A stretch of 55,499 nt of DNA from assembly GCA_036787005.1 (NCBI GenBank), contig DAIQQC010000001.1, positions 12,879 to 68,377 of the forward strand, read 5' to 3'. Positions 12,553 to 39,538 of the stretch are shown piece after piece. Made by a program: the position numbers and the translations under genes. Below the pieces are notes generated by a model. That model saw only the letters and a program-made list of their open reading frames with translations. It made no database searches and was not told the origin of the DNA. Origin of the DNA: Dehalococcoidales bacterium (GTDB taxonomy: Bacteria > Chloroflexota > Dehalococcoidia > Dehalococcoidales > RBG-16-60-22). How positions within the stretch are numbered: the stretch's first letter is position 1; each line of letters starts with the position of its first letter.

Positions 12553-12938
12553 GGGGATATCGTTGATATTGAGGTAACACCTAATGACCTAGGTATTCTG
12601 TACCCCAATCGGGGGTTCATCACCCACAGCAACCACTTCTATGCGGAGAGGTTCAAACCGCACGATATGATTAGCACCATCTACCCCGATTCCGTAATAC
12701 GCTCCCAGAGACTGGCTAACCTGATGGAAGAGCGTTGGGGCCGGCTCTCCGTGATGTCATGAAGGAGCTTTTGCAGCACAATAACCACCCCGAGTCCATC
12801 TGCCGGCATATCGACCCCGAGGTTCCTGAGGTGTTATAGATGAAGACCACCGCCAGCATCATCAGCCACCCCAAGGAGCAGAAGAGGTACATCGCTTGGG
12901 GTAATCCCTGCGAGAACGAGTACCTGGAGTACCAGATT
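12553..12938 (+). pseudogene. C-terminal fragment of a C45-family peptidase paralog (frameshift plus in-frame TAG; catalytic N-terminal two thirds missing)
   Basis: GDIVDIEVTPNDLGILYPNRGFITHSNHFYAERFK...DVMKELLQHNNHPESICRH...TTASIISHPKEQKRYIAWGNPCENEYLEYQI aligns block by block with the C-termini of 20517-21572 and 33593-34654. Confidence 0.7.
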
Positions 12939-12953
12939 ATAGGAGGGCGCACC

Positions 12954-13781
12954 ATGTTTAAGGAGTATGACCTCAAGGGCAAGGTAGCCATCGTCACGGG
13001 GGCAGGTAGTGGTGTCGGAAGGAGCATAGCCCTGACTTTCGCCGAGGCTGGTGTGGATGTCGCAGTAGCGGCCCGGACGAAAGAGAAACTGGATAAAACG
13101 GCCGAGGTAATACGTAGTCTGGGCCACAAGGCCCTGGTCATAACGGCGGATGTTACCAAGAAAACGGACGTGCAGAGCGTGGTCGCTCAGACCCTGAAGA
13201 CGTTCGGCAAGATTGATATAATGGTCAATAACGCCGGAATCGTTATCCTTAAGCCGATAGTCTACGTGCCGGGCATGAAGTTGGAAGGCTGGGGGGTGGC
13301 CGACAGCTGGGACACTCCCTTAAGCGAGAAGGAATGGCATCAGGTGCTGGACACGAATTTGACCAGCGCCTTCCTCTTCGCCCAGGCGATAGGACCCTAT
13401 ATGCTAGAGCGAAAGGAGGGTAGGATAATCAACATCAGCTCCAACAGCGCCGAGCTGTCCCCGCCTTATTTCTCCTCCTACTGCGTCAGCAAGGCCGCTT
13501 TAAGCATGTTTACTCGCTGTTTGGCCACTGAGTGGGGGGCCTACAATGTCACCGTCAACGCTATCGCGCCCGGCAGTGTGCTCACCGACCTCAGCGCCCC
13601 TGTACTCAAAGACGCCGAGAGAAAAGAGAGGATACTCAAGGCCGTGCCCCTGCAGCGGTTGGCGGAGCCCAGAGAAATAGGCCTGATGGCGGTTTATCTG
13701 GCCTCAGATGCTGCCGCCTACGTGACCGGCCAGACCTTTTTAATTGACGGCGGGCAGGTCACCCGGGGTAACGGCTTCTAG
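12954..13781 (+). CDS. SDR family oxidoreductase
   Basis: TGAGSGVGRS is the cofactor motif and YCVSKAA is the YxxxK motif. ATG at 12954 follows AGGAGGG. The ORF-track start at 12840 merely annexes the C45 pseudogene tail. Confidence 0.85.
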   Translation: MFKEYDLKGKVAIVTGAGSGVGRSIALTFAEAGVDVAVAARTKEKLDKTAEVIRSLGHKALVITADVTKKTDVQSVVAQTLKTFGKIDIMVNNAGIVILKPIVYVPGMKLEGWGVADSWDTPLSEKEWHQVLDTNLTSAFLFAQAIGPYMLERKEGRIINISSNSAELSPPYFSSYCVSKAALSMFTRCLATEWGAYNVTVNAIAPGSVLTDLSAPVLKDAERKERILKAVPLQRLAEPREIGLMAVYLASDAAAYVTGQTFLIDGGQVTRGNGF

Positions 13782-14105
13782 CTGCAGTACTGGCTAGAAC
13801 AACAACCTATTTATTGCCAGGCACCTACTTTACTGTATCGGAACTATCTCATCTTAGAGTACACGTTTTTTTTATTGTGAGCCTATGAGCTATAAAAGCG
13901 ACAAGCCTTATGGAGAATAGTCATCTGCATAGGATATAGTGCCAGAGCCTGCTATGTCCATAAATGCCGAGCACCTCTCTCTGACGGAGTCCCATAACCT
14001 AACTGAGTGTGTGGTTACGAGAGACTGGTTACCTACATCACTCAGTGTGCTACATACTACCTGCGCTCAAATGATACCCTGTGTTTGTCCGCAGAGTACG
14101 AAGGA

Positions 14106-15923
14106 TTAAAGCTTACTAGCATCATAGACAATTTTACCGCCAACGATAGTGATTAAATTTTGTATATCGCCTATATCCATCGTGTCAATGGTCAGTATAT
14201 TTATGTCCAGAATGCAGAAGTCAGCTAGCTTGCCTACCTCGATAGAGCCCTTAATATTCTCCATATGGTCTAGCCAGGCACCCTCAATGGTGTACATGCG
14301 GATGGCTTGCTCCACGCTAAGCCCTTGGAAAATAGCCCCCTGTATCCCCAGTTTCCAGTCTGGCCCGGCACAAGGAACATCAGAACTGCCGGCGACATGG
14401 ACCCCAGCATCAATCAGCCCTTTTAGCGGTGACGCCATTGGTTCTCCTAGCATGCCTGGCATACCTTGCTCATCCGACATATCGCCGCCGGTAAAGAATC
14501 GCATGAACTCAAGCATCATCCCCAGCTGTGGCGAGACGCCGACACCAAACTCAGCCATGCTTTTTGCCTTGCCCACTGATATAGAGCCGCCATGTATGAC
14601 ATAGTGGCGCAGGCCCTTGGGGTTATCACGCTCAGCCTTGATGAAGGCGTCGGCGCAGACGTCAGCAGCCCTGTCGCCGATAGCATGAATACCCACCCGC
14701 CAGCCGAGGTTGTGGGCATAGGCGATGATATCCGCTAGCGCCTGGATGCGTTCCTTATCGGTATTCCCGGGAGAATTCAGAGTCCCGTAGGTGCCGTCGG
14801 GGTACGGCTCATAGTTCCAGGAGGTCTGCATCATCGGGTTGCCGTCAGCGAAGAACTTGGTGCCGGCTATTCTCAGCCACTCGTTATCGGGGCCGCTATG
14901 CATATCGGCGGAGGCTAGGCTTTTTTGCATTTCGTCAATATTGCAGGTATTGTAAGGGGTAAAGACCATCAAAATGCCGACTCGCATCGTCAGCTTGCCC
15001 TCATTGTAGATTTCTTGGTAGGCGCGGATACACTCATCATCCCAGATCCCCTGATAGTCCCCGCGTGTGCCGGGCCCCAGGGCGCCGTCGGTAATGCTGG
15101 TTATCCCCAGTCTATTAAGGTCACGTATAGCGGCCAGAGCTGCTTGTTTTTTATCTTCTAAGTTGTAGGCAGGAAGTGCTTTTTTTACTACCAGATCCAT
15201 AGACATGCCTTTTAGTAGCCCGGTAGGTTCTCCAGTCTCCCAGTTTTTGACAATCTCTCCTATCGCAGGGAACGGAGTATCCTTGGTGATGCCAACAATC
15301 TCCATCGCCTTACTATTAAGTAAGTCAACTGGTGGTAAAAAGCTAAAGTAACCGACAGTTAGACAGACCGGATTATCCGGAGATACCGGATCTAGATCCC
15401 AACGTGTTGGGAGTCTGACTGGATATTGCTTGGATTCCTCAATAGTATTTAAATTTAGGCCTACACCAATGATCCACCTGCCTCGTTCAATTGTCTGAGC
15501 CTTGTTCTCTACAGCGCTCACGATATCCGCAATTGTCTTTATGTTTGGGTCGGTAAGGTCAATGACCAAGGGAGGTTTTTCACTGCCGAATAGAGTGCTG
15601 TGAACGTGGGTGTCATTGATACCCGGAAGCATCGTTTTCCCTTTGAGGTTCAGAACCTTCGTATTCTTGCCGACTAACGCTTCAATCTCCTCATCCGTAC
15701 CAACGGCGATAATTTTGTCGCCTTTCACCGCCACCGCCTGCGCGATAGAGAAGCTTTTGTCAACCGTGACTACCTTGCCATTGTAGATGACCAAATCAGC
15801 CGCTTGCTCTTCAGGAATATTCGCCGGTGACAGCCCTCTATCGCAGGATGTCATCAGGGGTAGAGAGATTAAAAGCAGGGCCATGAGAAGACCAAGGAAT
15901 GGTACAACCACTCTGTTTTTCAT
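14106..15923 (-). CDS. amidohydrolase-3 (YtcJ-like) metal-dependent hydrolase, exported lipoprotein
   Basis: DLVIYNGKVVTVD...PGINDTHVH is the metal motif, with HAIGD and HG.. further along. The N-terminus MKNRVVVPFLGLLMALLLISLPLMTSC is a signal peptide plus lipobox. ATG at 15923 follows AGGAGGGA. Confidence 0.85.
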   Translation of the reverse strand: MKNRVVVPFLGLLMALLLISLPLMTSCDRGLSPANIPEEQAADLVIYNGKVVTVDKSFSIAQAVAVKGDKIIAVGTDEEIEALVGKNTKVLNLKGKTMLPGINDTHVHSTLFGSEKPPLVIDLTDPNIKTIADIVSAVENKAQTIERGRWIIGVGLNLNTIEESKQYPVRLPTRWDLDPVSPDNPVCLTVGYFSFLPPVDLLNSKAMEIVGITKDTPFPAIGEIVKNWETGEPTGLLKGMSMDLVVKKALPAYNLEDKKQAALAAIRDLNRLGITSITDGALGPGTRGDYQGIWDDECIRAYQEIYNEGKLTMRVGILMVFTPYNTCNIDEMQKSLASADMHSGPDNEWLRIAGTKFFADGNPMMQTSWNYEPYPDGTYGTLNSPGNTDKERIQALADIIAYAHNLGWRVGIHAIGDRAADVCADAFIKAERDNPKGLRHYVIHGGSISVGKAKSMAEFGVGVSPQLGMMLEFMRFFTGGDMSDEQGMPGMLGEPMASPLKGLIDAGVHVAGSSDVPCAGPDWKLGIQGAIFQGLSVEQAIRMYTIEGAWLDHMENIKGSIEVGKLADFCILDINILTIDTMDIGDIQNLITIVGGKIVYDASKL

Positions 15924-16055
15924 CGCATCCCTCCTTCGGTTCAGTGAACGACGGTTTATTGGTGCATCGTCAGTATTTATAGCGAAACCCATGGGCAATT
16001 TAGTTAATTGAATCCTTTTTGTCAGGTCAAGTGGTTATATTATAGCTGTTATCGC

Positions 16056-16646
16056 TTAGTGGCCCTCATGGGGAACGTCATACCTCGGGGTGAGTGCAAT
16101 AATCACCATGGTGATGGTTTTGTCTACCTTCTTGAAGTTGAGGGGGCAATGCGACATGCCTTTGGGGAAGAAGAGCACCGTGGGGGAGGTGATAACGTAC
16201 TTTTCCTGATCCTTACCCTGGCCGATATAAATTTCAATCTCGGCATCGAAATCCGAGATGTCCTGTGGGTCAGAGCCGAAGAACATCATGAATTCCTCAA
16301 AGTCGTGTGAGTGTGGAAAGGGAACCATATACACGGGCTTGGTGATGAAGCGATATATGAAGCGGCAATTGGCATTTTCGTAGTTTTCCCCTTGCAGGTC
16401 TATCCACGGCCCGTGTATCGGCCCCGGCTCTATTGGTAGCGGGGTCACATACTTAGCGTACTTTCCGGCTGTCGTCACTCCGTTAGTCTCCTCATTGGCC
16501 GAGGCCGTAGGTGCCTTCACCGGCACTGCTGCCGGTTCTGTTGTCGGCACGGGGGTCGCGGTACAGCCAGTGAAGATGCTTACTGATAGCGCCAGTACCA
16601 GAACCCCTGCCAGCAAAATACTTACCAACTTCTTTTTATTTTTCAT
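16056..16646 (-). CDS. exported lipoprotein carrying the recurrent small-cupin domain (paralog 1 of 4)
   Basis: Signal peptide plus lipobox (IFTGC), then a Thr/Pro/Ala-rich linker, then the domain starting GKYAKYV... with PHSHDFEEFMMFFGS and FFPKGMSHCPLNF, which match cupin motifs 1 and 2. Confidence 0.75.
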   Translation of the reverse strand: MKNKKKLVSILLAGVLVLALSVSIFTGCTATPVPTTEPAAVPVKAPTASANEETNGVTTAGKYAKYVTPLPIEPGPIHGPWIDLQGENYENANCRFIYRFITKPVYMVPFPHSHDFEEFMMFFGSDPQDISDFDAEIEIYIGQGKDQEKYVITSPTVLFFPKGMSHCPLNFKKVDKTITMVIIALTPRYDVPHEGH

Positions 16647-17967: not shown

Positions 17968-18125
17968 TCAGAGAAAGCAAACTAAGGAATGAATTCCTGA
18001 ATCTTCAGGTCTTTTCTATTTTGGCAGAAATCAGGATATTGATTTAAAAGTGTAGAGTAAAGTACAATAAATTACGACCGCAGGTTAGTAAGCACAAGAG
18101 GCGATAGAAGAGAAAGGTGCGAACC

Positions 18126-19196
18126 ATGTTAAAGGCGAAAAACTCTCCCAAGGCCCAGACGGTGCTGGGTCCAATCGATGCCAGCTCGCTGGGTATTACC
18201 CTTCCTCACGAGCATATTTTCGCCGATGGCAGGAATTTTTTCTTCTCCGAGCCAGCCGACCCAGCCGAAAAAGCATTAGTTTACGCTCCGGTCACACTTG
18301 AAAACCTCGCCTGGGTGCGTGCCCATGCCCTGAGCAACGCGGACTGCCTGCAAATGCCAGGCGAGACGGTGCTGGTTAAAGAACTCCTGGTGTACAAGCA
18401 GGCCGGGGGCAATACCATCGTCGATGTCAGCACCAAACCCTTCGGCGGCGTCAATCCCGTAGGGCTCAAGCGGCTCGCTCAAGCCACCGGCCTTAACATT
18501 ATCATGGGCACTGGCTACTACCGGGGGCTACTGTATGCGCCGGAGGTAACTGCCATGACCGAAGAACAACTCCGGCAAGAAATCGTTCGGGACCTGACGG
18601 TGGGCGTCGGTGATACGGTAGTGCGCGCCGGCATCATCGGCGAGATAGGATTGACACCCACTCTGCGCGAGGATGAGCGCCGTTTGTTGCGCGCCTGTGC
18701 CGAAGCCCAGCGCGAGACGGGGGCTCCCATTACCATACACCCTCCCAGCCCAGACGATAGGCTGATACAGGAGGTATTGCGCATCCTGCGGGAAAACGGC
18801 GGCCGACCAGAAAAGACGGTCATTTGCCATATCGATATCATGGGATTCACGCCGGATACGGTCCGCCGCATCGCTGATACCGGCTGCTTTATCGAGTTCG
18901 ATACCTTCGGACACCTGTTCCCGCCCTTCGTGCTCGGGGAGAGCGTGATGGGCTTCCCGAGCGAGATGCAACGCATCAGTGCCGTGAGACAGCTTATCAG
19001 CGATGGCTACCTGAATCACATTCTCCTCTCCCACGATACCTTTCTTAAGGTGCTGCTGACTTCCTGGGGTGGGTTTGGCTACGGGCATATCTTACGTAAC
19101 ATCGTACCGGTAATGCTTCGGCAGGGCATCACAAAGTCGCAAATTCGAAAAATGATGGTGGAAAATCCCAGCCGTCTTTTATCTTTTATAATATAA
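18126..19196 (+). CDS. phosphotriesterase-family (PTE/PHP-like) hydrolase
   Basis: LGITLPHEHIF is the N-terminal metal motif. TIM-barrel pattern with ...PITIHP..., ...CHID... and LLSHD. The start could also be GTG at 18117. Confidence 0.8.
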   Translation: MLKAKNSPKAQTVLGPIDASSLGITLPHEHIFADGRNFFFSEPADPAEKALVYAPVTLENLAWVRAHALSNADCLQMPGETVLVKELLVYKQAGGNTIVDVSTKPFGGVNPVGLKRLAQATGLNIIMGTGYYRGLLYAPEVTAMTEEQLRQEIVRDLTVGVGDTVVRAGIIGEIGLTPTLREDERRLLRACAEAQRETGAPITIHPPSPDDRLIQEVLRILRENGGRPEKTVICHIDIMGFTPDTVRRIADTGCFIEFDTFGHLFPPFVLGESVMGFPSEMQRISAVRQLISDGYLNHILLSHDTFLKVLLTSWGGFGYGHILRNIVPVMLRQGITKSQIRKMMVENPSRLLSFII

Positions 19197-19847: not shown

Positions 19848-20288
19848 TCAATCAGAGCTACCAACCCCCTTGGCAATATTGGTGCAGATGAATGTTTCGT
19901 AACTCTTGACCCCTATTATGCTGGACAGGATTTTCTTTACTATTCTGTCTATCTCTGCAGTAGAATGGCACCAGATAATAATCATGACATTGAATCTACC
20001 AGCAGTGACAGAAACGAATATGCACTCCGGTATCTCATTGATGATTTTAAGGTTGTTATCCAGCTCCGTATTGTCAACGTTAATACCGATTATTGCCTGC
20101 ATAGGAAAGCCAACCTTGCTTGGCTCTGGCAGGGCAATAATATAAATAATGCCTTCCACGATGAGCCGATGCACTCGGCGCCTGATAGTGGAAGAATCTA
20201 CGTGGAGCTCTTTAGATAACTCCTTACTATTTTTACGGCCATCTTTGACGAGCTGCTCAATTATCTGGTAATCCAACGCATCTATCAT
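19848..20288 (-). CDS. Lrp/AsnC family transcriptional regulator
   Basis: HTH_AsnC N-terminus (LDYQIIEQLVKDGRKNSKELSKELHVDSSTIRRRV) plus an AsnC_trans_reg C-terminus. Confidence 0.9.
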   Translation of the reverse strand: MIDALDYQIIEQLVKDGRKNSKELSKELHVDSSTIRRRVHRLIVEGIIYIIALPEPSKVGFPMQAIIGINVDNTELDNNLKIINEIPECIFVSVTAGRFNVMIIIWCHSTAEIDRIVKKILSSIIGVKSYETFICTNIAKGVGSSD

Positions 20289-20516: not shown

Positions 20517-21572
20517 ATGAAAAAGAGAAAAAGACTTGAGATTATCGAATGCAGCTGTACGATGTACGAAATAGGCAAACAGTACGGCTCCGTTCGCCGT
20601 AATAGTCTTATTACTTCAATTAACTCACTTTTTAAAGAATACATTACATTAAATAAAACCAGCAGAGAAGAAATAATCACGACAATGCGGAATTATCTTT
20701 CACTTGTGAAGAGTTTTGACCCTGAGTTGGTGGAGATGCTCCAAGGACAAGCGGAGGGGGCGGGGGTCAGCCTTGAAGAGGTTTTCCTGCTAAGATGCAA
20801 CTTCGAGCTCAGTTTTTATTACCAGCAAATGAAAACCTTCTGTACCTCTTTTGCAGTCACCGGGCAAGCCACCAGAGACGGTAAAACCATCATCGGGCAA
20901 AATTTTGACGCTACCTGCGGCAGGTCAATAGATCTGGTGAAAACAACGCATGTGGATGGGCTGAAACAGCTGTCACTGGTTTTCTGGGGAGCCTGTGAGC
21001 TGGTCTTGAACTCAGCGGGCCTGGGGATGGTCTTAAACGTCATCGTGAGCCCACCGGAGGAACAGTTATTCACTTTACCCGCCTGCTGTGTCATACCCAA
21101 AGCGATGAGACAGAGGCGAATCGGCGATGCGCTAGGGGTTTTCTGCGTAGCCGGGCGTAGCATGATGAATTACTGCCTGGCGAGTAAAGAGGGCGATATT
21201 ATCGGTATCGAAACAAAACCCGATGATTTTAACGTGCTGCAACCCGAAAGGGGCATCCTGGTCCATGCCAACCATTATCACACCGAGCGGTTCAAGAAGG
21301 GTGAACTGGTGTACCTAGGAGCTCCGAGCACCTATATCCGCGAACCACAGATAAAAAGGCTCATTGAAAAGCACTACGGGAACATCACCCTGGAGCAGAT
21401 GATGGAAATCATGTCCAACCATAATAATCATCCCAGGGGTATCTGTAATCATGCCCTGGAGGGGTCTACGGCGGAGACACTGGCTTCCGTAATTATGGTA
21501 CCCGAGGATAATGCGATGTACGTAACGGCCGGGCATCCCTGCAAGTATGAGTATGAAGAATACATATTATAG
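20517..21572 (+). CDS. C45-family peptidase / acyl-CoA:6-APA acyltransferase-like Ntn hydrolase
   Basis: 351 aa. FCTSFAVTG...GQNFD is the Ntn Cys region. It is a paralog of 33593-34654. Confidence 0.75.
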   Translation: MKKRKRLEIIECSCTMYEIGKQYGSVRRNSLITSINSLFKEYITLNKTSREEIITTMRNYLSLVKSFDPELVEMLQGQAEGAGVSLEEVFLLRCNFELSFYYQQMKTFCTSFAVTGQATRDGKTIIGQNFDATCGRSIDLVKTTHVDGLKQLSLVFWGACELVLNSAGLGMVLNVIVSPPEEQLFTLPACCVIPKAMRQRRIGDALGVFCVAGRSMMNYCLASKEGDIIGIETKPDDFNVLQPERGILVHANHYHTERFKKGELVYLGAPSTYIREPQIKRLIEKHYGNITLEQMMEIMSNHNNHPRGICNHALEGSTAETLASVIMVPEDNAMYVTAGHPCKYEYEEYIL

Positions 21573-21699: not shown

Positions 21700-22200
21700 C
21701 TACCTGGGGACAGGGAGCGGATTGCGGGGCTTTTCTTCAATTTGAGAGAGGTAGATATAGTTAGCCTTAGGATTAATACTTTTAGCCATATTCATACAGA
21801 TAAACGTCTCGCAGTTTTTTAAGCCCTTCAAGTTGCAAGTAATCTTCTGGACCAGTACGTGAATTTCCGCAGTAGAATGGCACCACAGGATAATCATGAC
21901 ATTGAATCCCCCCACAGTGACCGAAACAAACTTGCATTCCGGGATGGCACAGATAGTCTGAAGGGCGCCATTTAAATCCTTCTTGTCAATATCCAAACCG
22001 ATTATCGCCTGCACGGGGAAACCTGCCTTGAAAAACTCCGGGAGAGCAATAATATGAATCGCCCCGTCTTTGATAAGGTGACTCACTCTCCGCCTTATGG
22101 TTGAAGAATTAACGTTGAGCTTATTAGCCATTACCTTACTGGTAAGGCGCCCATTCTTTATCATTAATGAGATTAATTGACTATCCAGCTCATCTATCAT
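21700..22200 (-). CDS. Lrp/AsnC family transcriptional regulator (paralog)
   Basis: LDSQLISLMIKNGRLTSKVMANKLNVNSSTIRRRV. It shares the FNVMII(I/L)WCHSTAEI block with 19848-20288. Confidence 0.9.
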   Translation of the reverse strand: MIDELDSQLISLMIKNGRLTSKVMANKLNVNSSTIRRRVSHLIKDGAIHIIALPEFFKAGFPVQAIIGLDIDKKDLNGALQTICAIPECKFVSVTVGGFNVMIILWCHSTAEIHVLVQKITCNLKGLKNCETFICMNMAKSINPKANYIYLSQIEEKPRNPLPVPR

Positions 22201-22380: not shown

Positions 22381-22448
22381 CACATTATGTGCAATCTTGT
22401 TCCCATAATGTTCATTTTTATTGACACTGAAAACATAACTGTTATAAC
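22381..22448 (+). promoter_or_regulatory. operator CACATTATGTGCAAT, N25, TTGACA, N16, TATAAC promoter upstream of the peptide-type ABC operon
   Basis: The motif lies at 22381-22395, TTGACA at 22421-22426 and TATAAC at 22443-22448. The motif and its exact 25-nt spacing match the two promoters at 36.5-36.8 kb. Confidence 0.55.
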
Positions 22449-24268: not shown

Positions 24269-24302
24269 ATAGAGATAGCAAAAGAAAAGGAATATATACA
24301 TA

Positions 24303-24340
24303 CCGGTGGAGGGGCTAAGTACCGGCTGGCTCCTCCACCG
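24303..24340 (+). other. stem-loop between the SBP and permease genes
   Basis: CCGGTGGAGG ... CCTCCACCG is a 9-10 bp GC-rich stem with no U-tract. This is the usual position of partial terminators or stabilisers in ABC operons. Confidence 0.35.
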
Positions 24341-24548
24341 AAGGGAAAGTTTGCAGGTTCGTTCGGATTATCGGCGGGAACGGGCTTTTAATAAAATATA
24401 AGAAATTTTACGGTTAATACAAGACTTGTTTTAGCAAACCAGCTAAAGCAAATCAGGGTTATTTCAGGTTGAGGAATGTAGGTCCCACGAGGGTTGACGA
24501 TACACTGCCTTTTTGAACATGCTGCTAATGACATGCTGGAGGCTTTGA

Positions 24549-25511: not shown

Positions 25512-25522
25512 GGAGTTCTGGT

Positions 25523-26437: not shown

Positions 26438-26464
26438 GAAATCCGGATCAATAAGGAAAACGAT

Positions 26465-30670: not shown

Positions 30671-31594
30671 GTGCCAAAAGGGATAATTGTTTACCTCTCC
30701 TACACCGGAAACACCAGGCAGATTGCCCGGGCAATATACAGAGGTATGAATCCGCTCATGGACAGGTGCGGTATCGTCAAGCTGCGCCAGACCAACCCGG
30801 CGGACCTGGTGGGTTATGACCTGATAGGTATCGGCAGCCCGGTGCGGCTTGGCAAAATGCCCGTCGAGCTCAAGGATTTTATCGTAAAAATGGATTCGCT
30901 GCAAGGAACGCACTGCTTCGTTTTCAATACCCATGCGGCACTGCCGGTCGGTTTCATGAGAGAGTGCGTGACCGCTTTGAAAGATAAAGGACTGGTCGTT
31001 ATCGGTTTTAAAAACTGGTACAGCGCCGTATATCTCCCCTATGTTCCCAAGCCATATTTCACCGATGGTCATCCGGATGAAATCGACCTCAAAGAAGCCG
31101 AGCAATTCGGGCGGGAAATGGTGCTATACAGTCGCAAAATACATCAAGGCGAGAGCGACCTAATCCAGCGCCTGCCTGAAGGTAAAGAGTACGATAGGAT
31201 TTACGGCGCTCAAATGACGGGCGCCCTACCCGTGGATGTGATGAAAGCACGCGCCCAGGGATTCAGCATAAACATGGAAAAGTGCACCCGCTGCAACTAT
31301 TGCGTGGAACTCTGCCCCACGAACAGTATCGATTTCTCGGTAAACCCGCCAGTTTTTAAGAGATGCGACCAGTGCTGGATGTGCGAGCAGACCTGCCCGG
31401 AGGGCGCTATATCATTCAACTACCCGCCGCTCCTCAAATCCCACAACGTTATCGTGGAGCAGAGGTTTGTCCCGGCCCTCAAGCTCGCGGAAGAACTAGG
31501 CCGTTTCCGGCCGTTGGTGAAGCCTGAAGACATAGGGTGGGAGACACCTCTATTTATTACTAACAAGCCGCCGCGTTTTAAAATTATGCAATAA
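30671..31594 (+). CDS. flavodoxin-like domain fused to a 2x[4Fe-4S] ferredoxin domain (EFR1-type)
   Basis: IIVYLSYTGNTRQIA is a flavodoxin-type N-terminus. CTRCNYCVELCP and CDQCWMCEQTCP are the cluster motifs. GTG start follows AAGGGGG. Confidence 0.75.
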   Translation: MPKGIIVYLSYTGNTRQIARAIYRGMNPLMDRCGIVKLRQTNPADLVGYDLIGIGSPVRLGKMPVELKDFIVKMDSLQGTHCFVFNTHAALPVGFMRECVTALKDKGLVVIGFKNWYSAVYLPYVPKPYFTDGHPDEIDLKEAEQFGREMVLYSRKIHQGESDLIQRLPEGKEYDRIYGAQMTGALPVDVMKARAQGFSINMEKCTRCNYCVELCPTNSIDFSVNPPVFKRCDQCWMCEQTCPEGAISFNYPPLLKSHNVIVEQRFVPALKLAEELGRFRPLVKPEDIGWETPLFITNKPPRFKIMQ

Positions 31595-31669
31595 CCCGAG
31601 GGCTTTATTCACGTTGAACTAATGATATCGCCTTCAAAAAAATACCCAATAAGAGAAGGGAGATGTTAT

Positions 31670-32293
31670 ATGGCTAAAGAAAACTTGGAGCAGAAAGTTA
31701 AAGACCTGGAGGCAAAGCTTACGGCCGTAACCGATATACAGGAGATAGAAAAACTGCAGAGGATATACGGTTTTTACCTGGATAACCGTATGTGGGATGA
31801 CGTTGTGGATTTATTTTCCGATAATACCGAATCGCTGGAGATAAGCGATAGCGGCGTGTACCTGGGGAAAGCCGGGGTGAGGAGATTTTTCAAGGAATTC
31901 ATGGGGAGAGGCGGCTTGCCGCCCATGCCCGGAGCCCTAGGGACACACATGCAGCACCAGGGAGTAGTCAACCTAGACCCGGGGGGTGTTACCGCCAAGG
32001 GAAGATGGCAATGCGTCATCTGGCTGGCTACGTCCCTGAATAATAAGCTATCGGCAGGGCTGGGTCACGGCGTCTACGAGGATGAATACATTAAAGAAAA
32101 TAAAACATGGAAATTCAAAAAAATGCATTTCTACTTGGTGTTCCGGACCCTGCTGGATGAAGGATGGGTGAAGACACCGGTGGTGCTTTCCATGGCTAAG
32201 GGAAGCGCTGATTTACCCACTACCGTCTATAAACCTTACCCGTCCGGTTATGTTATCCCCTTCCACTTTAAGAACCCCGTAACCGGGAAGTAG
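31670..32293 (+). CDS. SnoaL-like / NTF2-family protein
   Basis: LEAKLTAVTDIQEIEKLQRIYGFYLDNRMWDDVVDLFSDN is the canonical SnoaL_4 opening. ATG at 31670 follows AGAAGGGAG. Confidence 0.7.
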   Translation: MAKENLEQKVKDLEAKLTAVTDIQEIEKLQRIYGFYLDNRMWDDVVDLFSDNTESLEISDSGVYLGKAGVRRFFKEFMGRGGLPPMPGALGTHMQHQGVVNLDPGGVTAKGRWQCVIWLATSLNNKLSAGLGHGVYEDEYIKENKTWKFKKMHFYLVFRTLLDEGWVKTPVVLSMAKGSADLPTTVYKPYPSGYVIPFHFKNPVTGK

Positions 32294-33138: not shown

Positions 33139-33546
33139 TTAATCCGGGTAGGCGGCGATAGCGTCTACTTCAACCTTGAAATTTTTGGAGGCAAGCCCCT
33201 CTACGACAGCCAGGGTTCCGGTGCTGGGCTTTTCTTTTAAACCGGGCGCATATTTATAGCATTCATCATGGAACTTGCGAATCACCTTAACCGGGTCGGC
33301 GGCACCTTTTTTCATGTAAATGGTATGCTTTACCATGGCGCCGATATTTAAGCCAAGCTCTTCCAAGGCGGCGTTCATCTTACGCACCACAACCTCTATC
33401 TGGACAAAAATATCATCATCCACGTCACCACCCTTGCTGAAATCCATTGCCTCCGTGCCGGAAAGAAAGATAATTTTTCCTACCGATAAAGTCTTGCTGA
33501 TGTCCATCGACATCTCACCGTATAAAGTACGCTTAAAGTTATCCAT
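33139..33546 (-). CDS. RidA/YjgF/L-PSP family protein
   Basis: 135 aa with IFLSGT... and a C-terminal VEVDAIAA pattern typical of the family. Confidence 0.75.
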   Translation of the reverse strand: MDNFKRTLYGEMSMDISKTLSVGKIIFLSGTEAMDFSKGGDVDDDIFVQIEVVVRKMNAALEELGLNIGAMVKHTIYMKKGAADPVKVIRKFHDECYKYAPGLKEKPSTGTLAVVEGLASKNFKVEVDAIAAYPD

Positions 33547-33592
33547 GCTGTTCCTCCTTTATCTTAGTTATTCCGGGCTCCTGTATCTATTT

Positions 33593-34654
33593 TCATAGCT
33601 TGTATTCTTCAAATTCATACCGGCAAGGCTGTCCCCAGGCAACGTACATCACCTTATCCTCGGGGATCATAATTACCGAAGCCAGCGTCTCTCCCCGGGG
33701 CATCTGGGGGTTCATATGGGCACATATCGAGTTGGGGTAGTTATTATGGTCAGCCATGAACTCCATCATCAACTCAACGGTAAGGTCTCCATAGTGCCTT
33801 TCCATGAGTCTTTTTATCCGCTGCACCCGAATGTAGCTGTCACCTTCCATCAAACCAAAGGTGCCGTCACCCCTTTTCAGTCTTTCCGTGAGGTAATGGT
33901 TGGAGTGAACGAACATATCGGCTTCAGGCTGCAGCACGTTAAAGTCATCGGGCCTGGTCTCAATAGCGATAATGTCCCCTTCCGCGCTAGCGAAGGTATA
34001 ATTCAAGATACTACGCCCCGAGGCGCAAACGACCCCTAGGGCGTCGCCGATTCTCTTCTGCCGCATCGCCCGCAAGATGACACAGCAACAGGGCACGTTA
34101 AGGGCCTGGTCTTTAACCGGACTTAACATTACGTTCAGAGTCATTGCTACTCCCGCGGAGTTCAGCAACACCTCGCAGGCGCCGCCAAAGACAAGCGATA
34201 GCTGTTCCAGATTGTCATTGTACTTTTTCCTGACCAGATCTATCGACAAACCGGCATTGAGGTCGAAGTTCTGGCCGATGATTGTCTTACCGCCCCTTGT
34301 CACCTTACCCGTAGCGGCAAAAGACGTGCAAAGACAGGTTACACGCTGGTAATATATGCCTAACTCAAACCGGCACATCAGCATTAAAATCTCATCAAAC
34401 GGGACGCCGGCACCTTCCGCCTGTCCCTTCATCATCTCAATCAGCTCCGGGTCAAAACGCTCTACCGAGGGCAAATATTTACGGGCATTGGCCAAGATTT
34501 CCGCCTTGCTGACTTTCCGCACCATGCCGATGTTAACGATAAGCTCATTAATCGATTTGATAATATTATTCCGGCAAGCTACGCCGTACTGCTTCCCGAT
34601 TTCATAAGGAGTGCCACTGCACTCATGGACCGGTAACTTCCTGCTATCTTTCAT
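33593..34654 (-). CDS. C45-family peptidase / acyltransferase-like Ntn hydrolase (paralog)
   Basis: LCTSFAATG...GQNFD. It is collinear with 20517-21572 over its full length. ATG at 34654 is preferred over TTG at 34669. Confidence 0.75.
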   Translation of the reverse strand: MKDSRKLPVHECSGTPYEIGKQYGVACRNNIIKSINELIVNIGMVRKVSKAEILANARKYLPSVERFDPELIEMMKGQAEGAGVPFDEILMLMCRFELGIYYQRVTCLCTSFAATGKVTRGGKTIIGQNFDLNAGLSIDLVRKKYNDNLEQLSLVFGGACEVLLNSAGVAMTLNVMLSPVKDQALNVPCCCVILRAMRQKRIGDALGVVCASGRSILNYTFASAEGDIIAIETRPDDFNVLQPEADMFVHSNHYLTERLKRGDGTFGLMEGDSYIRVQRIKRLMERHYGDLTVELMMEFMADHNNYPNSICAHMNPQMPRGETLASVIMIPEDKVMYVAWGQPCRYEFEEYKL

Positions 34655-34696
34655 TTGCCTTCCCTTCAATGCCTGGCGTCTTGTTACTTGGCATCT

Positions 34697-36433
34697 TTAC
34701 ATGGCATCGTAGACAATTTTTCCGCCGGCAACAGTCATCAATGTCCGTATATCCGTTATTTTATGCGGCTCCACATTCAATATATCCTCGTCAAGAATAC
34801 AGAAATCAGCCACTTTACCGGGTTCTATAGAGCCTTTGACCTGTTCCATGTGGTCCTGCCAGGCTCCTTCTATGGTATACATCCGGATAGCCTGTTCGCG
34901 GCTAATACGCTGGCCAGAGTCAGCAGACAAGTCTCCTGGTATAGACTCCCTTAAAACGGCTGCCTGTATCCCCTGTTTCCAGTCCGGGATAGTCACAGGA
35001 GCATCAGAGCCGCCGGAAACATGTACGCCTGCCTCCATCAGTGTTTTTAAGGGCAGCAGCTTCGTGGCACGTTCTTTGCCAACGGAAAAAGCTATAGGAC
35101 CGGACATGACATTTGCCAGCACCGGCTGTACCGAAACACCGATATGATATTCGGCCATGCGTCTGGCGCTTTTCCCTGGAACGAAGTCACCATGAATGAT
35201 GTAATGGCGGAGGTCCTTTGGCTGCTCCTGCTCTGCCCTGACAAAACCATCAATACAGGCATCGATGGACCTATCGCCGGTAGCATGAACACCTATTTGA
35301 AAACCGAGTTTGTGGGCATGGGCGACAATATTCCTCAGCTCCTGGCAACGCTGCTCGTCCGTCTGCCCTGAAAAAATAAGAGCCCCGTTACCGCCACCCG
35401 TATAATCTTCATACATCCAGGCGGTTTTCATCGGCGGTATGCCGTCGGCAAAAAGCTTGATTCCGGCTATCCTCAGCCATTTATTGCCAAAACCAGTGTG
35501 TATCCCGATTTCCGGCAAACCCTTGAGCAGTTCCTCAGGATGGTAGCGGCCGTAGGGAGTAAAGAGCAGCAAGATGCTAACCCTTACCGTGAGTTTGCCC
35601 TCATTATTCAGGTCGTTATAGATGCTGATACATTCAGAATCCCATAGCCCCCCATAAACCAGAGCTCCAGCCGGGCCCAGACTCGGCTCGGTGATGCTGG
35701 TTATCCCCAGAGTATTAAGTTCACGCATGGCGGTGAGTAGCGCCTGTTTCTTTTGCTCCCTGGTCAAGAGAGGCACAACGCCGGTCACCAGATCGTCCGT
35801 GAGCATCCCCCGCACTAAACCGGTAAACTCGCCGGTGACCGGGTCTTTGACAACCTCACCACCACGGGCAAATGGGGTGTCTTTATGGATTCCTGCCAGG
35901 TTCCAGGCCCTGGTGTTAAATAGAACGATACGTTCGCCGCGAAAGGGAATAGCCCCGATGTAGACAGGGTTATCCGGAGATATCCGGTCTAAATCCCAGC
36001 GTGTGGGGTACCGGCCCGAGTTTTGCTGACACTCGTTAAGCAATACCGGGTCGAGTCCCATACCTCGTATCCACTCGCCGGGCTTGGCCGACTTTGCTTT
36101 CTCACCTATGGTATTAACAAGGTCGTCGATGGATTTTACCGCCGGGTAACTGACATCGAGCACTACCGGAGGTCTTGTACCACCAAAAAGAGAGGCATGT
36201 ATATGAGCATCGTTAATGCCCGGAAGCACGGTACTGCCTTGAAGGTCGATTTTTCGGGTCTTTTTGCCTGCCAGGGCTATAATCTCTTCATGGCTGCCAA
36301 CCGCCAGGATTATACCGTCTTTAACCGCTATGGCGCGGGCAATAGAAAAATTCTTATCTACCGTGACGACTTTTCCGTTGAAAACAATCAAATCCGCTAG
36401 CGCCGATTCTAGCGGCGACCTGTTTGACGCCAT
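34697..36433 (-). CDS. amidohydrolase-3 (YtcJ-like) metal-dependent hydrolase, cytoplasmic paralog
   Basis: DLIVFNGKVVTVD...PGINDAHIH...HATGD. ATG at 36433 follows GAGAGGTG. No signal peptide. Confidence 0.85.
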   Translation of the reverse strand: MASNRSPLESALADLIVFNGKVVTVDKNFSIARAIAVKDGIILAVGSHEEIIALAGKKTRKIDLQGSTVLPGINDAHIHASLFGGTRPPVVLDVSYPAVKSIDDLVNTIGEKAKSAKPGEWIRGMGLDPVLLNECQQNSGRYPTRWDLDRISPDNPVYIGAIPFRGERIVLFNTRAWNLAGIHKDTPFARGGEVVKDPVTGEFTGLVRGMLTDDLVTGVVPLLTREQKKQALLTAMRELNTLGITSITEPSLGPAGALVYGGLWDSECISIYNDLNNEGKLTVRVSILLLFTPYGRYHPEELLKGLPEIGIHTGFGNKWLRIAGIKLFADGIPPMKTAWMYEDYTGGGNGALIFSGQTDEQRCQELRNIVAHAHKLGFQIGVHATGDRSIDACIDGFVRAEQEQPKDLRHYIIHGDFVPGKSARRMAEYHIGVSVQPVLANVMSGPIAFSVGKERATKLLPLKTLMEAGVHVSGGSDAPVTIPDWKQGIQAAVLRESIPGDLSADSGQRISREQAIRMYTIEGAWQDHMEQVKGSIEPGKVADFCILDEDILNVEPHKITDIRTLMTVAGGKIVYDAM

Positions 36434-36508
36434 GAATATCACCTCTCAGGTTGGACCGAAAAGACCTGTTGTTTTCCAGAGATAACGCCCCATCAGATTC
36501 TAAAAATT

Positions 36509-36578
36509 AAATTACACTCACTCTCCGTTCATTGTCAATTGAAATAAGCATATTGGGGATAAAATTGCACATATTGTG
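36509..36578 (-). promoter_or_regulatory. operator CACAATATGTGCAATTT, N25, TTGACA, N18, TAATTT promoter for the 36433-start operon
   Basis: On the minus strand the motif is 36562-36578, TTGACA is 36533-36538 and the -10 is 36509-36514. Confidence 0.55.
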
Positions 36579-36699: not shown

Positions 36700-36767
36700 C
36701 ACAATATGTGCAATTTGTCTAGCGTTACGCTCATTTTTCTTGACGGTAAGAAGACGATAATTATATT
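36700..36767 (+). promoter_or_regulatory. operator CACAATATGTGCAATTT, N25, TTGACG, N16, TATATT promoter for the 36842-start operon
   Basis: The motif at 36700-36716 is the exact reverse complement of 36562-36578. TTGACG is 36740-36745 and TATATT is 36762-36767. Confidence 0.55.
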
Positions 36768-36841: not shown

Positions 36842-38560
36842 ATGAAGATAGACATGCGCTATGCCGACACCGTTTTCTTGAATGGGAAAGTCATTACAGT
36901 AGACGGGGATTTTTCAATCTGCCAGGCGGTAGCCACCAAGGACGGTATCATCGTAGCCACGGGCAGAAATAACAACGTCAGGTCTCTGACAGGTAAAAAC
37001 ACGCGGGTTATCGACCTTAAAGGCAAGACGATGCTCCCCGGTATTAACGACTGCCACACACATGCGGCTTTATTCGGTGGTACGAGGCCGCCGCTGATGC
37101 TTGACCTCACCTATCCGACGGTAAAATCAATCAAAGACATCGTCAAGTTAGTTGCGGAAAGAGTTAAAACGACCCACCCCGGGGATTGGATAAGAGGGTT
37201 CGGCTGGGACGAAGGGTATTTAGAGGAATGCCTGCAGGACAGGACACACCACCCCACGCGATGGGATCTGGATGTCATATCCCCGGACAACCCTGTCTGC
37301 CTGGGCGACTTTTCCGTGCACTCCCTCTGGCTGAACAACAAGGCGCTGGAACTGGCGGGTATCACCACGGACACGCCAGTCCCGGTGGGCGGAGACATTG
37401 TTAAAGACCCCGAGACAGGCAAGGTCACGGGGATAATCAACGAGCTTGCCGCCCAGGGAATGGTCATGAAGGTCATACCACCGTGGACCAGGGCGCAGAA
37501 GAGATCTGCGATAGTTACCGCCATTAAAATTTTCAACGAGCTGGGCATTACCAGTATTACCGAGGGCGCGCTGGGGCCTGGAGGCGTGGGCTACCAGGGG
37601 GGACTGCTCGACTCAGAGTGCATCGGGGTCTATAACGACCTCTATGATGAAGGCAAGCTAGACATCCGCGTGAATATATTCTATCTTTTCGGCGAGTACG
37701 GAGCTTGCTCCTATAAAGATTTCCAACAGATTATCCCCGCACTGGGCATACACTCTTGCTTTGGCAACGATTGGATAAAGATCGGCGGAGTGAAGATATT
37801 CGCCGACGGCATCCCTCCGAACAAGACCGCCTGGGTAAGTGAGGAGTACGCTGGAGGAGGGCGGGGCAGCCTGGTGGTGCCGGGTAACACGGAGCAGGAA
37901 CACCGTGAAGAACTTGACAGGATGATAAAGCTGGCTCATCATCATAACTTCCAGGTAGGCGTCCACGCCATCGGTGACATGGCGATAGCCGCCACCGTCG
38001 ACAGCTTCATCGAAGCTGAAAAGAATGAACCCAAAGGTTTGAGGCACTACATTGTACATGCCGACTTCATCTCGCCCGAATACGCTGATAAGGCGGCCAA
38101 AAACAATATCGCCATCTGTGCCCAGCCCGGTATCCAGTGGACCCTTGCCGACGCTAGCTCCTATCTAGTCGGCATCGAGCGGGCAGCCCAGCAGTGGCCG
38201 TACAAGACCATTCTTGATGCCGGCGCGCGTCTCACCGGCAGCTCCGATACGCCCTGCATCGCCCCCCACTGGCTGCAGGGTATTCAGTCTGCCCTATTAA
38301 GGGAGTCTAAAGCCACCGGCAAGGTAAACAATCCTGCCCAACGCATCAGCCGGGAACAGGTTATCCGCATGTACACGATATCTGCTGCCTGGCAGGACCA
38401 CATGGAAAACCGGAAGGGCTCTATCGAACCGGGGAAGCTGGCCGACCTGTGCGTCTTGGGAGAGGATATTCTAGGCGTGGAGGCGCACAGCATAAAGGAC
38501 ATTCCTATAATGATGACGGTGGTCGGCGGGCAGGTAGTCTATGAAAGTGATGATTTTTAG
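36842..38560 (+). CDS. amidohydrolase-3 (YtcJ-like) metal-dependent hydrolase, cytoplasmic paralog
   Basis: DTVFLNGKVITVD...PGINDCHTH...HAIGD. It is collinear with 34697-36433 and 14106-15923. Confidence 0.85.
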   Translation: MKIDMRYADTVFLNGKVITVDGDFSICQAVATKDGIIVATGRNNNVRSLTGKNTRVIDLKGKTMLPGINDCHTHAALFGGTRPPLMLDLTYPTVKSIKDIVKLVAERVKTTHPGDWIRGFGWDEGYLEECLQDRTHHPTRWDLDVISPDNPVCLGDFSVHSLWLNNKALELAGITTDTPVPVGGDIVKDPETGKVTGIINELAAQGMVMKVIPPWTRAQKRSAIVTAIKIFNELGITSITEGALGPGGVGYQGGLLDSECIGVYNDLYDEGKLDIRVNIFYLFGEYGACSYKDFQQIIPALGIHSCFGNDWIKIGGVKIFADGIPPNKTAWVSEEYAGGGRGSLVVPGNTEQEHREELDRMIKLAHHHNFQVGVHAIGDMAIAATVDSFIEAEKNEPKGLRHYIVHADFISPEYADKAAKNNIAICAQPGIQWTLADASSYLVGIERAAQQWPYKTILDAGARLTGSSDTPCIAPHWLQGIQSALLRESKATGKVNNPAQRISREQVIRMYTISAAWQDHMENRKGSIEPGKLADLCVLGEDILGVEAHSIKDIPIMMTVVGGQVVYESDDF

Positions 38561-38638
38561 GTCGGTGAGAGCCGGAGAGGCAGGCTAGCTCATCTCGTAG
38601 CGGTTAGACAGGCTACAACAAATAAAAAAGGGGCGAAT

Positions 38639-38986
38639 ATGGCAAAAGTAAAAATTACCGTGGTCAAGACATCAAATTATAACGAAATGTTCGGAAAAAA
38701 TCTTCCAGCGAACATCGACAAAGCCATGCTTAAGCCGCAATGCCACGTCTTCAAGACCGGGCAAGAGTTCATTTTAAGCACCGATAGTGACGCGCCTCCC
38801 TCGCAGAGCTGGGAAAACTGTCCGGCAGGCTTTTGTCCCTGGGCTTATGCTGATATCCAGAGGGATATCACCCATATACTCTTCGGCGGCTCTTATCCGT
38901 GGATAAAGGATAATGGAGTGACTATCTCATGCTGCACGGACGGTTTAAGACCGGTTATCTTTAAGATTGAGAGAATTGCCGATTGA
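38639..38986 (+). CDS. small Cys-containing protein, TIGR04076-like
   Basis: 115 aa. CPAGFCPWAYADIQ and a later CC pair resemble the TIGR04076 family. This assignment rests on memory of the family pattern only. Confidence 0.5.
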   Translation: MAKVKITVVKTSNYNEMFGKNLPANIDKAMLKPQCHVFKTGQEFILSTDSDAPPSQSWENCPAGFCPWAYADIQRDITHILFGGSYPWIKDNGVTISCCTDGLRPVIFKIERIAD

Positions 38987-39091
38987 CCACCGGAGGGGGA
39001 AGCGTCTCACGGGCCGATTACGGCATTTCCTGACTGATAATGTTGTCCGCGTTTTTCTGCAAAGTCGGATATACTAGAAAGGATTGAAAAT

Positions 39092-39538
39092 ATGAGTACA
39101 CGTAAATACAGCAAATACCTCATTTCTAATCCCAAGCTTGTTCGCGAACTGGTATATCATGACCTTAAAAACGTATCAGGCTTTACCTTTCCCGATGAAA
39201 TATACCTGGACAAAGATATCCTCGAGGAAGCCAACCACTGGCTGGATATCACCTGGATATGGGACAAGACCACTCCCCGGGAGCTGCCCGGCGCCCATTC
39301 CCATAAATTTGACGAGATTGTCCTCTTGGTTGGCTCCAACGCCAGGAACCTGAGAGATTTGGGCGGGGAGGTGGAGTGGGGTATGGGCGAAGGCAAAGAC
39401 GCAGAGACCTACCTGATTACCGCCACCACCCTGATTTACGTCCCCAAAGGGCTGGTTCATGGACCCCTTGTTTTCAAGAGGGTGGATAGACCCATATTGA
39501 ATATCGCTATCGGCATCAATACCGGAAAGTACGCCTGA
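39092..39538 (+). CDS. small cupin-domain protein, uncharacterised family (paralog 4 of 4)
   Basis: MSTRKYSKYLISNPK...GAHSHKFDEIVLLVGSNARNLRDLGGEVEW...IYVPKGLVHGPLVF. Confidence 0.75.
   Translation: MSTRKYSKYLISNPKLVRELVYHDLKNVSGFTFPDEIYLDKDILEEANHWLDITWIWDKTTPRELPGAHSHKFDEIVLLVGSNARNLRDLGGEVEWGMGEGKDAETYLITATTLIYVPKGLVHGPLVFKRVDRPILNIAIGINTGKYA

Follow-up and report, generated by a model that had tools for sequence, protein, structure and literature searches.

What would a run of amide hydrolases, a peptide-type importer and an aldehyde-oxidizing enzyme, bracketed by decayed recombinase genes, do for an uncultured Dehalococcoidales bacterium? The question is raised by positions 12553 to 39538 of the window analyzed here, a 55,499-nucleotide stretch (C63:12879-68377) of a metagenome-assembled genome (MAG; labeled G000, 1.79 Mb in 149 contigs, GC content 0.56). 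This region of 27 kb holds a co-regulated set of genes for amide catabolism, acquired horizontally and lying within a composite island at a tRNA-Met gene. We think it rather likely that it is the cargo in the middle module of an island of approximately 51.6 kb, and that it serves as one co-regulated catabolic unit for one or more small amide-linked compounds; the steps beyond family membership are those that we infer. Observed directly are the identities of the genes and their catalytic residues, the ends of the island, its patchy occurrence, the joint conservation of the genes and their common operator, whereas the sequence of steps, the export of the first of them, the kind of substrate, the pairing of regulator with operator and the aldehyde step belong to the proposed mechanism. 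Genes were identified by Pfam, NCBIfam and PDB-sequence searches of the open reading frames (ORFs) of the window, which recovered every gene listed in an initial annotation of the region (Table I). Comparisons were made with 301 genomes sampled across the class, 61 relatives and six genomes of the host genus.

The hydrolases suggest the chemistry. Three YtcJ-like amidohydrolases (a, b, and c) cover positions 1-472 of the Amidohydro_3 profile (PF07969) with E values of 2e-79 to 3e-93 and are 45-51% identical to one another. All three retain the metal ligands (HxH, a carbamylated Lys, two His, and Asp) as well as the DxHxH, KxFADG, GVHAxGD, HYxxH, and GSSDxP motifs; their nearest solved relatives are uncharacterized (PDB entry 3icj, 3e-29). 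The two intact C45 proteins, C45a and C45b, are 58% identical and belong to the autoproteolytic N-terminal nucleophile (Ntn) acyltransferase/hydrolase family, with autoprocessing predicted. The C45_proenzyme model (NF040521) is matched at 194 bits (cutoff 85), the nucleophile Cys114 (LCTSF) is invariant in five aligned sequences at the position expected of an N-terminal nucleophile, and the sole solved relative is acyl-CoA:isopenicillin-N acyltransferase (PDB entry 2x1d, 2e-16). In-frame TAG codons in two C45b orthologs were considered as signs of pseudogenes or recoding, a reading rejected on finding that they lie upstream of the real start. Full profiles, intact ligands and nucleophile, and truncation of a third C45 paralog (C45') bear out the initial count of three amidohydrolases, two intact C45 genes and one dead one. 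The phosphotriesterase (PTE)-like protein has its best PDB match, over its full length, in the phosphotriesterase-related entry 9efa (1e-67). As this is far ahead of organophosphate hydrolases and lactonases (phosphotriesterases/lactonases, 3e-32 or weaker), it is assigned to the phosphotriesterase-related (PTER) clade.

The cleavage of C-N bonds proposed at the outset is supported by characterized N-acyl amide-cleaving members in all three of the YtcJ-like, PTER, and C45 families (PMC10699109, PMC13081902, PMC11374699). YtcJ-like PF07969 enzymes act as N-acyl amidases in Streptomyces, as epsilon-lysine acylases (PMC10699109), and a YtcJ-like secreted metallo-bile-salt hydrolase of Bilophila acts on taurine conjugates (PMC13081902); PTER hydrolyzes N-acetyltaurine and N-acetyl-beta-alanine (PMC11374699, PMC13311154). 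These families bear directly on whether this is an ordinary peptide-fermentation locus without any special substrate, in which an oligopeptide importer feeds assorted peptidases and the aldehyde:ferredoxin oxidoreductase (AOR) acts on aldehydes derived from the 2-oxoacids of amino acids, as in anaerobes that ferment peptides. Such a locus would account for the Dpp/Opp-type importer, for an AOR of the broad-specificity AOR clade and for Lrp/AsnC regulators, which typically respond to amino acids, and the host genome has at least eight Dpp/Opp loci and at least eight AOR genes. However, no hydrolase here comes from a classical alpha-peptidase family, the characterized relatives have N-acyl or non-alpha amides as their substrates (PMC10699109, PMC13081902, PMC11374699), genes for 2-oxoacid:ferredoxin oxidoreductase and alpha-aminotransferase are absent from the cluster, and few genomes carry the cluster (4 of 301 in the class), which would not be expected of a housekeeping peptide system. 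On balance, we regard peptide fermentation as unlikely, if still worth keeping in view.

The distribution of the genes indicates that they travel together, as had been suggested for comparative genomics to decide: synteny is seen in at least eight Dehalococcoidia genomes, and one operator is common to three promoters. A profile search for this C45 type matched 4 of the 301 class genomes, 12 of the 61 relatives and none of the six genomes of the host genus, of which three reach a completeness of 92% or more. In a MAG of another genus (G310), most cluster proteins are 85-96% identical to those in the window, and a stretch of 3.9 kb is 93% identical at the nucleotide level. For this pair of genomes, housekeeping proteins give 70% (pterin-binding methyltransferase) and 76% (GatB fragment), while RadA is 88-96% identical among congeners; cluster identity above housekeeping identity shows that the cluster has moved between lineages recently. 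Two lineages of the cluster are found. Type I (G000, G310, and JBGPRB) has the same order from the gene for a HEAGH-motif protein to amidohydrolase c. Type II, in Dehalococcoidaceae MAGs (G312/CAZCOB, G325, CAZPAS, CAYPDM, and CAYPYL), is 58-87% identical to type I and keeps its blocks in rearranged order: the importer; AOR-EFR1-NTF2-cupin; amidohydrolase b-Rid-C45b; short-chain dehydrogenase/reductase (SDR)-cupin-amidohydrolase c; and cupin-C45a-PTER. Type II clusters also carry a histidine kinase, a NarL-type response regulator, a TRAP binding protein and a class-III aminotransferase, the NarL-type two-component system standing in place of Lrp.

In the window, the 15-mer CACAWTATGTGCAAT is followed by exactly 25 nucleotides and then TTGAC at three promoters, with identical spacing. 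The full pattern had no match in 100 shuffles, and no other copy was found in the host genome except one poor site with two mismatches; G310 has kept the sites. This operator is missing from type II clusters, in which a different element, 44-88 nucleotides long, is common to the three corresponding promoter regions. In G312 this element lies at L044:7253-7326, 7548-7635, and 12980-13067, next to the histidine kinase and NarL-type regulator. The best evidence for joint function of the three units is that two unrelated regulatory solutions have been applied to them. The two Lrp/AsnC regulators of the region are 58% identical, and an Lrp/AsnC regulator would be the protein that acts on the 15-bp operator, 25 nucleotides upstream of the -35 box, at the three promoters.

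The initial annotation placed an accessory island of 27 kb between recombinase remnants. The island is real, but its extent has to be revised, since the 27 kb is the inner part of an approximately 51.6-kb insertion at the 3' end of tRNA-Met. At the right end, an intact large serine recombinase gene overlaps the tRNA-Met gene by 44 nucleotides and so adjoins its tRNA target. At the left junction, 51.6 kb away and outside the window, C63:4598-4662 matches the tRNA-Met 3' flank of congener G304 (80% over 65 nucleotides, E = 6e-11). The matched sequence in G304 comprises a terminator hairpin and the tRNA end directly 3' of tRNA-Met, and 13 nucleotides of the junction are identical to the tRNA-Met 3' end. 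The matching left junction together with tRNA-Met at the right end indicates that the stretch between them was inserted relative to the ancestral state. Congeners G303, G304, and G306 keep tRNA-Met beside the same methyltransferase operon as in the host, with unrelated DNA beyond it that differs in each; a truly empty site is not among these three. The GC content of the insertion is 0.42-0.50, compared with 0.571 +/- 0.02 for host contigs of at least 5 kb, and C63 is the lowest-GC contig of the genome. Absence from all six congeners, linkage to the tRNA-Met insertion, low GC content, and an 85-96% identical copy in another genus uphold the accessory nature of the region. The tRNA-Met site is itself an integration hot spot in the genus (G306 L031:1121-9105; G304 L028): G306 has a restriction-modification pair, a tyrosine integrase, a TIR-like gene and other mobile-type genes at this position, and G304 has 19 kb without counterpart in the host genome. 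Other low-GC contigs of the host (C106 and C148) hold loci similar to those of the island.

Recombinase remnants do lie on both flanks of the 27 kb, matched to recombinase tails in two relatives. Pfam searches at E <=1 were uninformative for these remnants, which were identified solely through the genomes of relatives. Remnant 1 corresponds by tblastn onto the window to the C-terminal tail of a 584-residue ORF (G311:C58), which resembles the intact recombinase of the window (E = 6e-7). The 500-residue G320 ORF whose tail matches remnant 2 aligns with the intact recombinase over approximately 480 residues. Intact homologs of remnant 2 all run into tRNA-Val, and homology in the window stops approximately 6 nucleotides into the tRNA end (window 40100-40240); with only these left, the remnant-2 module is no longer at a tRNA-Val. 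A search of a plasmid collection with remnant 2 gave no matches. The three recombinase genes or remnants are all on the plus strand, each closing the right end of a segment; taken by themselves, they suggest that the island was built of successive modules by tandem accretion. On its left, C45' is joined to a Zn-ribbon gene fragment consisting of the promoter and approximately the first 12 codons, and nucleotide homology to G310 starts exactly at 12535. The C45' ortholog is intact in G310 (contig C23; 92% and 89% amino-acid identity) and stands directly upstream of the orthologous SDR gene. Of the SDR ORF as called, the first 33 codons are the C45' tail, which places the SDR start near 12954. 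Between the last cupin gene and remnant 2, the frame at 39673-39822 is probably a further gene remnant in a zone of decay.

Several side observations concern the junctions. Pieces of window 11846-12540 (0.7 kb) are short, occur in multiple copies in 19 of 61 relatives and reach up to seven places per genome; some copies immediately precede serine recombinase genes, one stands directly before amidohydrolase c in G310 (C23), and the segment may be a junction-associated repeat. The 518-residue recombinase starts at a GTG codon four residues before the catalytic RVSS motif (window 41740-41900), and the coding sequence of its first beta-strand sits upstream in frame without a start codon. Its activity is doubtful by this reading of the gene; the recombinase may be inactive and the island fixed. 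Left of the window, an island set of DUF134, NifX-like and two MinD-type Fe-S ATPase genes is 59-70% identical to a chromosomal set outside the left junction and in inverted order (the two sets lie at C63:877-4422 and C63:8382-12776).

A hot spot whose content is different in each congener, with pseudogenes and remnants present, raises the prospect that unrelated accessory genes have passively piled up here without a common pathway. Nucleotide identity to G310 is moreover a mosaic of 93%, 80%, and 75% in adjacent segments. Against such a pile-up stand the genome-unique operator common to three promoters, the persistence of the gene set together in at least eight genomes of two lineages despite rearrangement and a change of regulator, and the chromosomal G312 cluster, which has tRNA-Ser genes on one side, topA/xerC-like housekeeping genes on the other and no mobile genes in its vicinity. 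We consider a passive assemblage very unlikely. The 27 kb was also considered as a circular permutation of the G310 arrangement, in which C45' and the SDR gene come after the cupin that stands at the right end in the window; the mosaic identity and the ambiguous G310 contigs leave this reading tentative. Two G310 contigs, C67 (L040 end) and C23 (L043/L084), both hold the amidohydrolase c promoter with different DNA upstream, amidohydrolase b in one and a broken Zn-ribbon kinase gene in the other, which points to duplication or strain variants in the G310 MAG.

As a co-regulated catabolic unit, the gene set can be read as a route from the outside of the cell inward. Lipoprotein signals are present on amidohydrolase a, on the neighboring cupin and on the importer's binding protein, suggesting an extracellular cut followed by uptake. 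The lipoprotein YtcJ-type amidohydrolase a and the tethered cupin would trim the substrate outside the cell, and the product would enter through the lipoprotein family-5 binding protein and the DppBCDF-type importer. Inside, amidohydrolases b and c, both C45 proteins, and the PTER-type enzyme would cleave N-acyl or non-alpha-peptide C-N bonds, and the SDR, NTF2-like protein and cupins would process the released moieties. The AOR would then oxidize an aldehyde intermediate, with the EFR1 flavodoxin-ferredoxin as electron acceptor. By PDB matches (9mqx, 6e-95; 1aor, 2e-88; FOR, 3e-68; BamB, 7e-49), this enzyme belongs to the AOR clade proper and not with FOR, GAPOR, or BamB, and its metal is predicted. 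The aldehyde step is plausible and gains indirect support from the class-III aminotransferase of type II, outside this 27 kb, which would make an aldehyde for the AOR from a released omega-amine. Our best guess at the likely substrates is small N-acyl or non-alpha-peptide amides. No equivalog-level NCBIfam match was obtained for any enzyme, in keeping with the earlier remark that no named pathway fits. Nicotinate fermentation with enamidase, reductive or Rut pyrimidine degradation, ectoine degradation through Doe enzymes, and hydantoin or creatinine degradation were rejected because signature enzymes are absent: no Mo-hydroxylase, dihydropyrimidinase equivalog, DoeA/B, or RutA/B was found among the scanned ORFs of the window.

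The same importer and AOR pair bear on two further explanations. The island might serve detoxification or signal degradation, for instance of beta-lactam-like or N-acyl-homoserine-lactone-like compounds, and not nutrition. The C45 proteins belong to the isopenicillin-N acyltransferase family, PTE-like proteins include lactonases, and in Firmicutes the neighbors of the closest C45 homologs are TetR and ABC-2 exporter genes and, in one case, a gene of the class-C beta-lactamase family. Assimilation is nevertheless favored by the high-affinity importer and the energy-conserving pair of AOR and ferredoxin, and no exporter or resistance-type gene is present in the cluster, leaving a detoxifying role scarcely probable. 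Alternatively, the ATP-binding cassette (ABC) system might import a metal or metallophore, in the manner of NikA or CntA, for the surrounding metalloenzymes. The binding protein scores 152 bits with NikA and 120 bits with CntA, comparable to 151 bits with GsiB (cutoff 594), and nickel binders are prominent among its PDB matches, the best of which is GsiB/YliB (1uqw, 2e-39). None of these scores, however, comes anywhere near the cutoff of its model, the importer and two hydrolase operons have their operator in common, and the cluster contains no metal-responsive regulator. Tungsten for AOR comes through other transporter families. Metal import appears very improbable as the purpose of the transporter.

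Several observations weigh against a single amide-catabolic unit. With no enzyme at equivalog level, no substrate can be assigned, and no aminotransferase or other aldehyde-forming enzyme is encoded in the 27 kb. Nickel/metallophore binders and the glutathione binder are equally close to the binding protein. The left sub-block, from SDR to C45a, lacks a copy of the operator, and neither a search allowing <=3 mismatches nor blastn found copies of the tRNA-Met 3' end at the internal module junctions. A vocabulary of cupin, SDR, AOR, and Dpp genes recurs on many contigs of the host, so that a habit of the genome at large could account for part of the co-location. Contig chimerism is conceivable, the source being a MAG. 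Finally, the Rid protein lacks the Arg required in imine hydrolysis.

This last point concerns one of two respects in which the earlier interpretation fails, while it stands in its account of an accessory and mobile gene set, of co-traveling genes, of amide chemistry, and of a pathway without a name. Quenching of an enamine or imine had been ascribed to a RidA protein. The window protein scores 29 bits against a RidA subfamily cutoff of 106, and the KPAR sequence of PH0854 is replaced by KPST. The Arg is absent (Thr/Gly) from this protein and its three cluster orthologs (4 of 4), and from the Rid protein linked to C45 in a deltaproteobacterial MAG. Arg105 of Escherichia coli TdcF is essential for imine hydrolysis (PMC4433059), and without the catalytic Arg the Rid protein is not to be taken as an enamine/imine quencher. 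Ongoing diversification by duplication is likewise contradicted. In a maximum-likelihood tree, the lineages of amidohydrolases a, b, and c split before the divergence of types I and II, and type I amidohydrolase b groups with its type II counterpart (support 98/94). The G312 orthologs of C45a and C45b are 81% and 65-69% identical over aligned parts, compared with 58% between C45a and C45b. The paralogs are therefore older than the type I/II split, each with its own type II ortholog, and the local trend is one of loss and decay (truncated C45, remnants) and not diversification.

Table I. Features of the 27-kb region and its flanks (window positions)
Feature	Position	Strand	Evidence or remarks
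Recombinase remnant 1, C-terminal (Myb-like) tail of large serine-recombinase-like gene	11891..12178	+	In-frame stops, internal deletion
Dead third C45 paralog (C45')	12535..12940	+	Residues 226-359 only; one frameshift, one in-frame TAG
SDR oxidoreductase	12954..13781	+	Pfam adh_short_C2 1e-61; 94% identical to G310 ortholog
Amidohydrolase a (YtcJ-like)	14106..15998	-	Pfam Amidohydro_3 2e-79; lipoprotein signal LPLMTSC
Small cupin with lipobox (IFTGC) and Thr/Pro-rich tether	16056..16646	-	Neighbor of amidohydrolase a
HEAGH-motif protein, 353 residues	16906..17967	-	Pfam PF15887 E 0.0023, below cutoff
PTER-clade hydrolase	18117..19196	+	Pfam PTE 6e-62
Small cupin, 143 residues	19247..19678	+	Cupin family comparison
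Lrp/AsnC regulator 1	19848..20288	-	Pfam
C45 Ntn hydrolase a	20517..21572	+	NCBIfam C45_proenzyme
Lrp/AsnC regulator 2	21700..22200	-	Pfam; divergent from importer operon
Operator CACATTATGTGCAAT + 25 nt + TTGAC	22381..22425	+	Promoter of importer/AOR operon
Five-gene Dpp/Opp-type ABC importer	22655..28440	+	Lipoprotein family-5 binding protein (22655-24268), two permeases, two ATPases
Tungsten-type AOR (AOR clade)	28739..30589	+	Pfam AFOR_N, AFOR_C
EFR1-family flavodoxin-[4Fe-4S] ferredoxin	30671..31594	+	NCBIfam NF038196, 94 bits vs cutoff 75
SnoaL_4 / NTF2-like protein	31622..32293	+	Pfam
Small cupin, 149 residues	32308..32757	+	Cupin family comparison; last gene of importer/AOR operon
Rid-family protein without catalytic Arg	33139..33546	-	Alignment to PH0854
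C45 Ntn hydrolase b	33593..34669	-	NCBIfam C45_proenzyme
Amidohydrolase b (YtcJ-like), cytoplasmic	34697..36442	-	Pfam Amidohydro_3
Operator + 25 nt + TTGAC	36534..36578	-	Promoter of amidohydrolase b-C45b-Rid
Operator + 25 nt + TTGAC	36700..36744	+	Promoter of amidohydrolase c-TIGR04076-cupin
Amidohydrolase c (YtcJ-like), cytoplasmic	36842..38560	+	Pfam Amidohydro_3
TIGR04076-family small protein, 115 residues	38639..38986	+	NCBIfam 70.7 bits vs cutoff 33
Small cupin, 148 residues	39092..39538	+	Cupin family comparison
C-terminal remnant of alanine-dehydrogenase-type gene (probable, weak)	39673..39822	+	Pfam AlaDh_PNT_C E 0.13
Recombinase remnant 2, tail of large serine recombinase	39943..40206	+	79% identical to tail of 500-residue G320 ORF
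Large serine recombinase, full-length, 518 residues	41839..43395	+	Last 44 nt complement the tRNA-Met 3' half
tRNA-Met (CAT)	43352..43426	-	Right end of ~51.6-kb insertion

The four small cupins are 27-41% identical to one another and match no Pfam or NCBIfam family except for one weak Cupin_2 match. An AlphaFold model of one cupin (pLDDT 78) shows a generic metal-binding cupin in which three His are invariant and a Glu is conserved at >=90%. Compared with known structures, it gave generic matches only (TM-scores of 0.4-0.5; HppE, vicilins, oxalate decarboxylase, and archaeal PGI). The family is large in the host genome, with 39 ORFs, 51 domains, and 12 bicupins on 25 contigs, including several tandem arrays, and the small cupins are consequently not specific to the island. 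These genes often adjoin SDR, AOR, Dpp-type, and amidohydrolase genes. Examples are found at C16:1681-3917, C85:17690-19130, C146:9326-10291, and C148:3010-5189, and most homologs in a collection of 5.8 billion proteins are unnamed and without a Pfam domain. At C148:20606-23968, a fourth amidohydrolase paralog (41-46% identical) is divergent from a class-III aminotransferase gene that is 76% identical to that of type II; C148 also holds cupins, a SnoaL-like gene and a PTE-like gene, and this locus may be the native counterpart of the island cargo. The protein initially likened to Peptidase_Mx does contain a HEAGH motif, but its match to that family is below threshold; a 79% identical ortholog stands beside the PTER gene in G310.

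Parts of the gene set recur outside Dehalococcoidia. In four Bathyarchaeia genomes, a C45 gene (54-58% identical) adjoins a small cupin, with M20, M19, CE4, Amidohydro_3, and TIGR04076 genes beside them, and in the deltaproteobacterial MAG the C45 gene lies between an amino-acid permease and the Rid-family gene. Desulfobacterales MAGs (L059:10001-11909; L064) have a C45 gene directly followed by an EFR1-family flavodoxin-ferredoxin (101 bits), and the EFR1 ferredoxin may be linked to C45 beyond its association with AOR. It is tempting to speculate, though we hold it only as a tentative possibility, that C45, small cupin, YtcJ amidohydrolase, TIGR04076 protein, and Arg-less Rid protein make up a conserved catabolic module that anaerobes of sediments pass to one another, even across domains between Dehalococcoidia and Bathyarchaeia, and that is directed at unrecognized amide-linked sedimentary compounds, the cupins being a new family of enzymes that work on the released moiety without oxygen. 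In anoxic sediments, Dehalococcoidia and Bathyarchaeia rank with the most abundant cells, and their diet is largely unknown. The literature offered nothing on this gene combination in Dehalococcoidia beyond a general remark on expanded amidohydrolases in marine members. As a regulon-bounded, horizontally shared set, the cluster provides an experimental handle in one binding protein, six hydrolases, and one operator, and screening these parts could reveal a substrate class used by Dehalococcoidia. Were the substrate to be ordinary peptides, the finding would be routine.

The region resembles two known kinds of system, an integrative catabolic island and a binding-protein-dependent amidase regulon. 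The ssrA-linked islands of Dehalococcoides carry serine recombinases and are targeted to tRNA or tmRNA genes. Like them, the island has a large serine recombinase at one end running into a small-RNA gene, a short repeat of the 3' end of that gene at the far junction, several recombinases or remnants in a row, atypical GC content and a patchy distribution. Unlike them, it targets tRNA-Met, its internal junctions have no recognizable att repeats, and its cargo is an amide-hydrolase/importer/AOR regulon in place of reductive dehalogenases; serine-recombinase tRNA islands in Dehalococcoidia therefore move catabolic traits as well as dehalogenases. In the iaaA-gsiABCD locus of E. coli, an Ntn-hydrolase gene accompanies a glutathione importer. 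The region shares with it a family-5 binding protein nearest to GsiB/YliB, DppBCDF-type partners and linked Ntn-type amide hydrolases. However, the hydrolases here are of the Cys-type C45 family and not the Thr-type asparaginase family, the binding protein is far from the GsiB cutoff, and nothing in that locus corresponds to the AOR, the cupins, or the YtcJ amidohydrolases. The amidohydrolases share their Pfam family and metal-ligand set with the Streptomyces and Bilophila N-acyl amidases, a likeness at the level of family only, and amidohydrolase a is, like the secreted Bilophila enzyme, predicted to be exported. The PTE-like protein resembles PTER at the level of clade only, being a bacterial homolog in a different genomic context.

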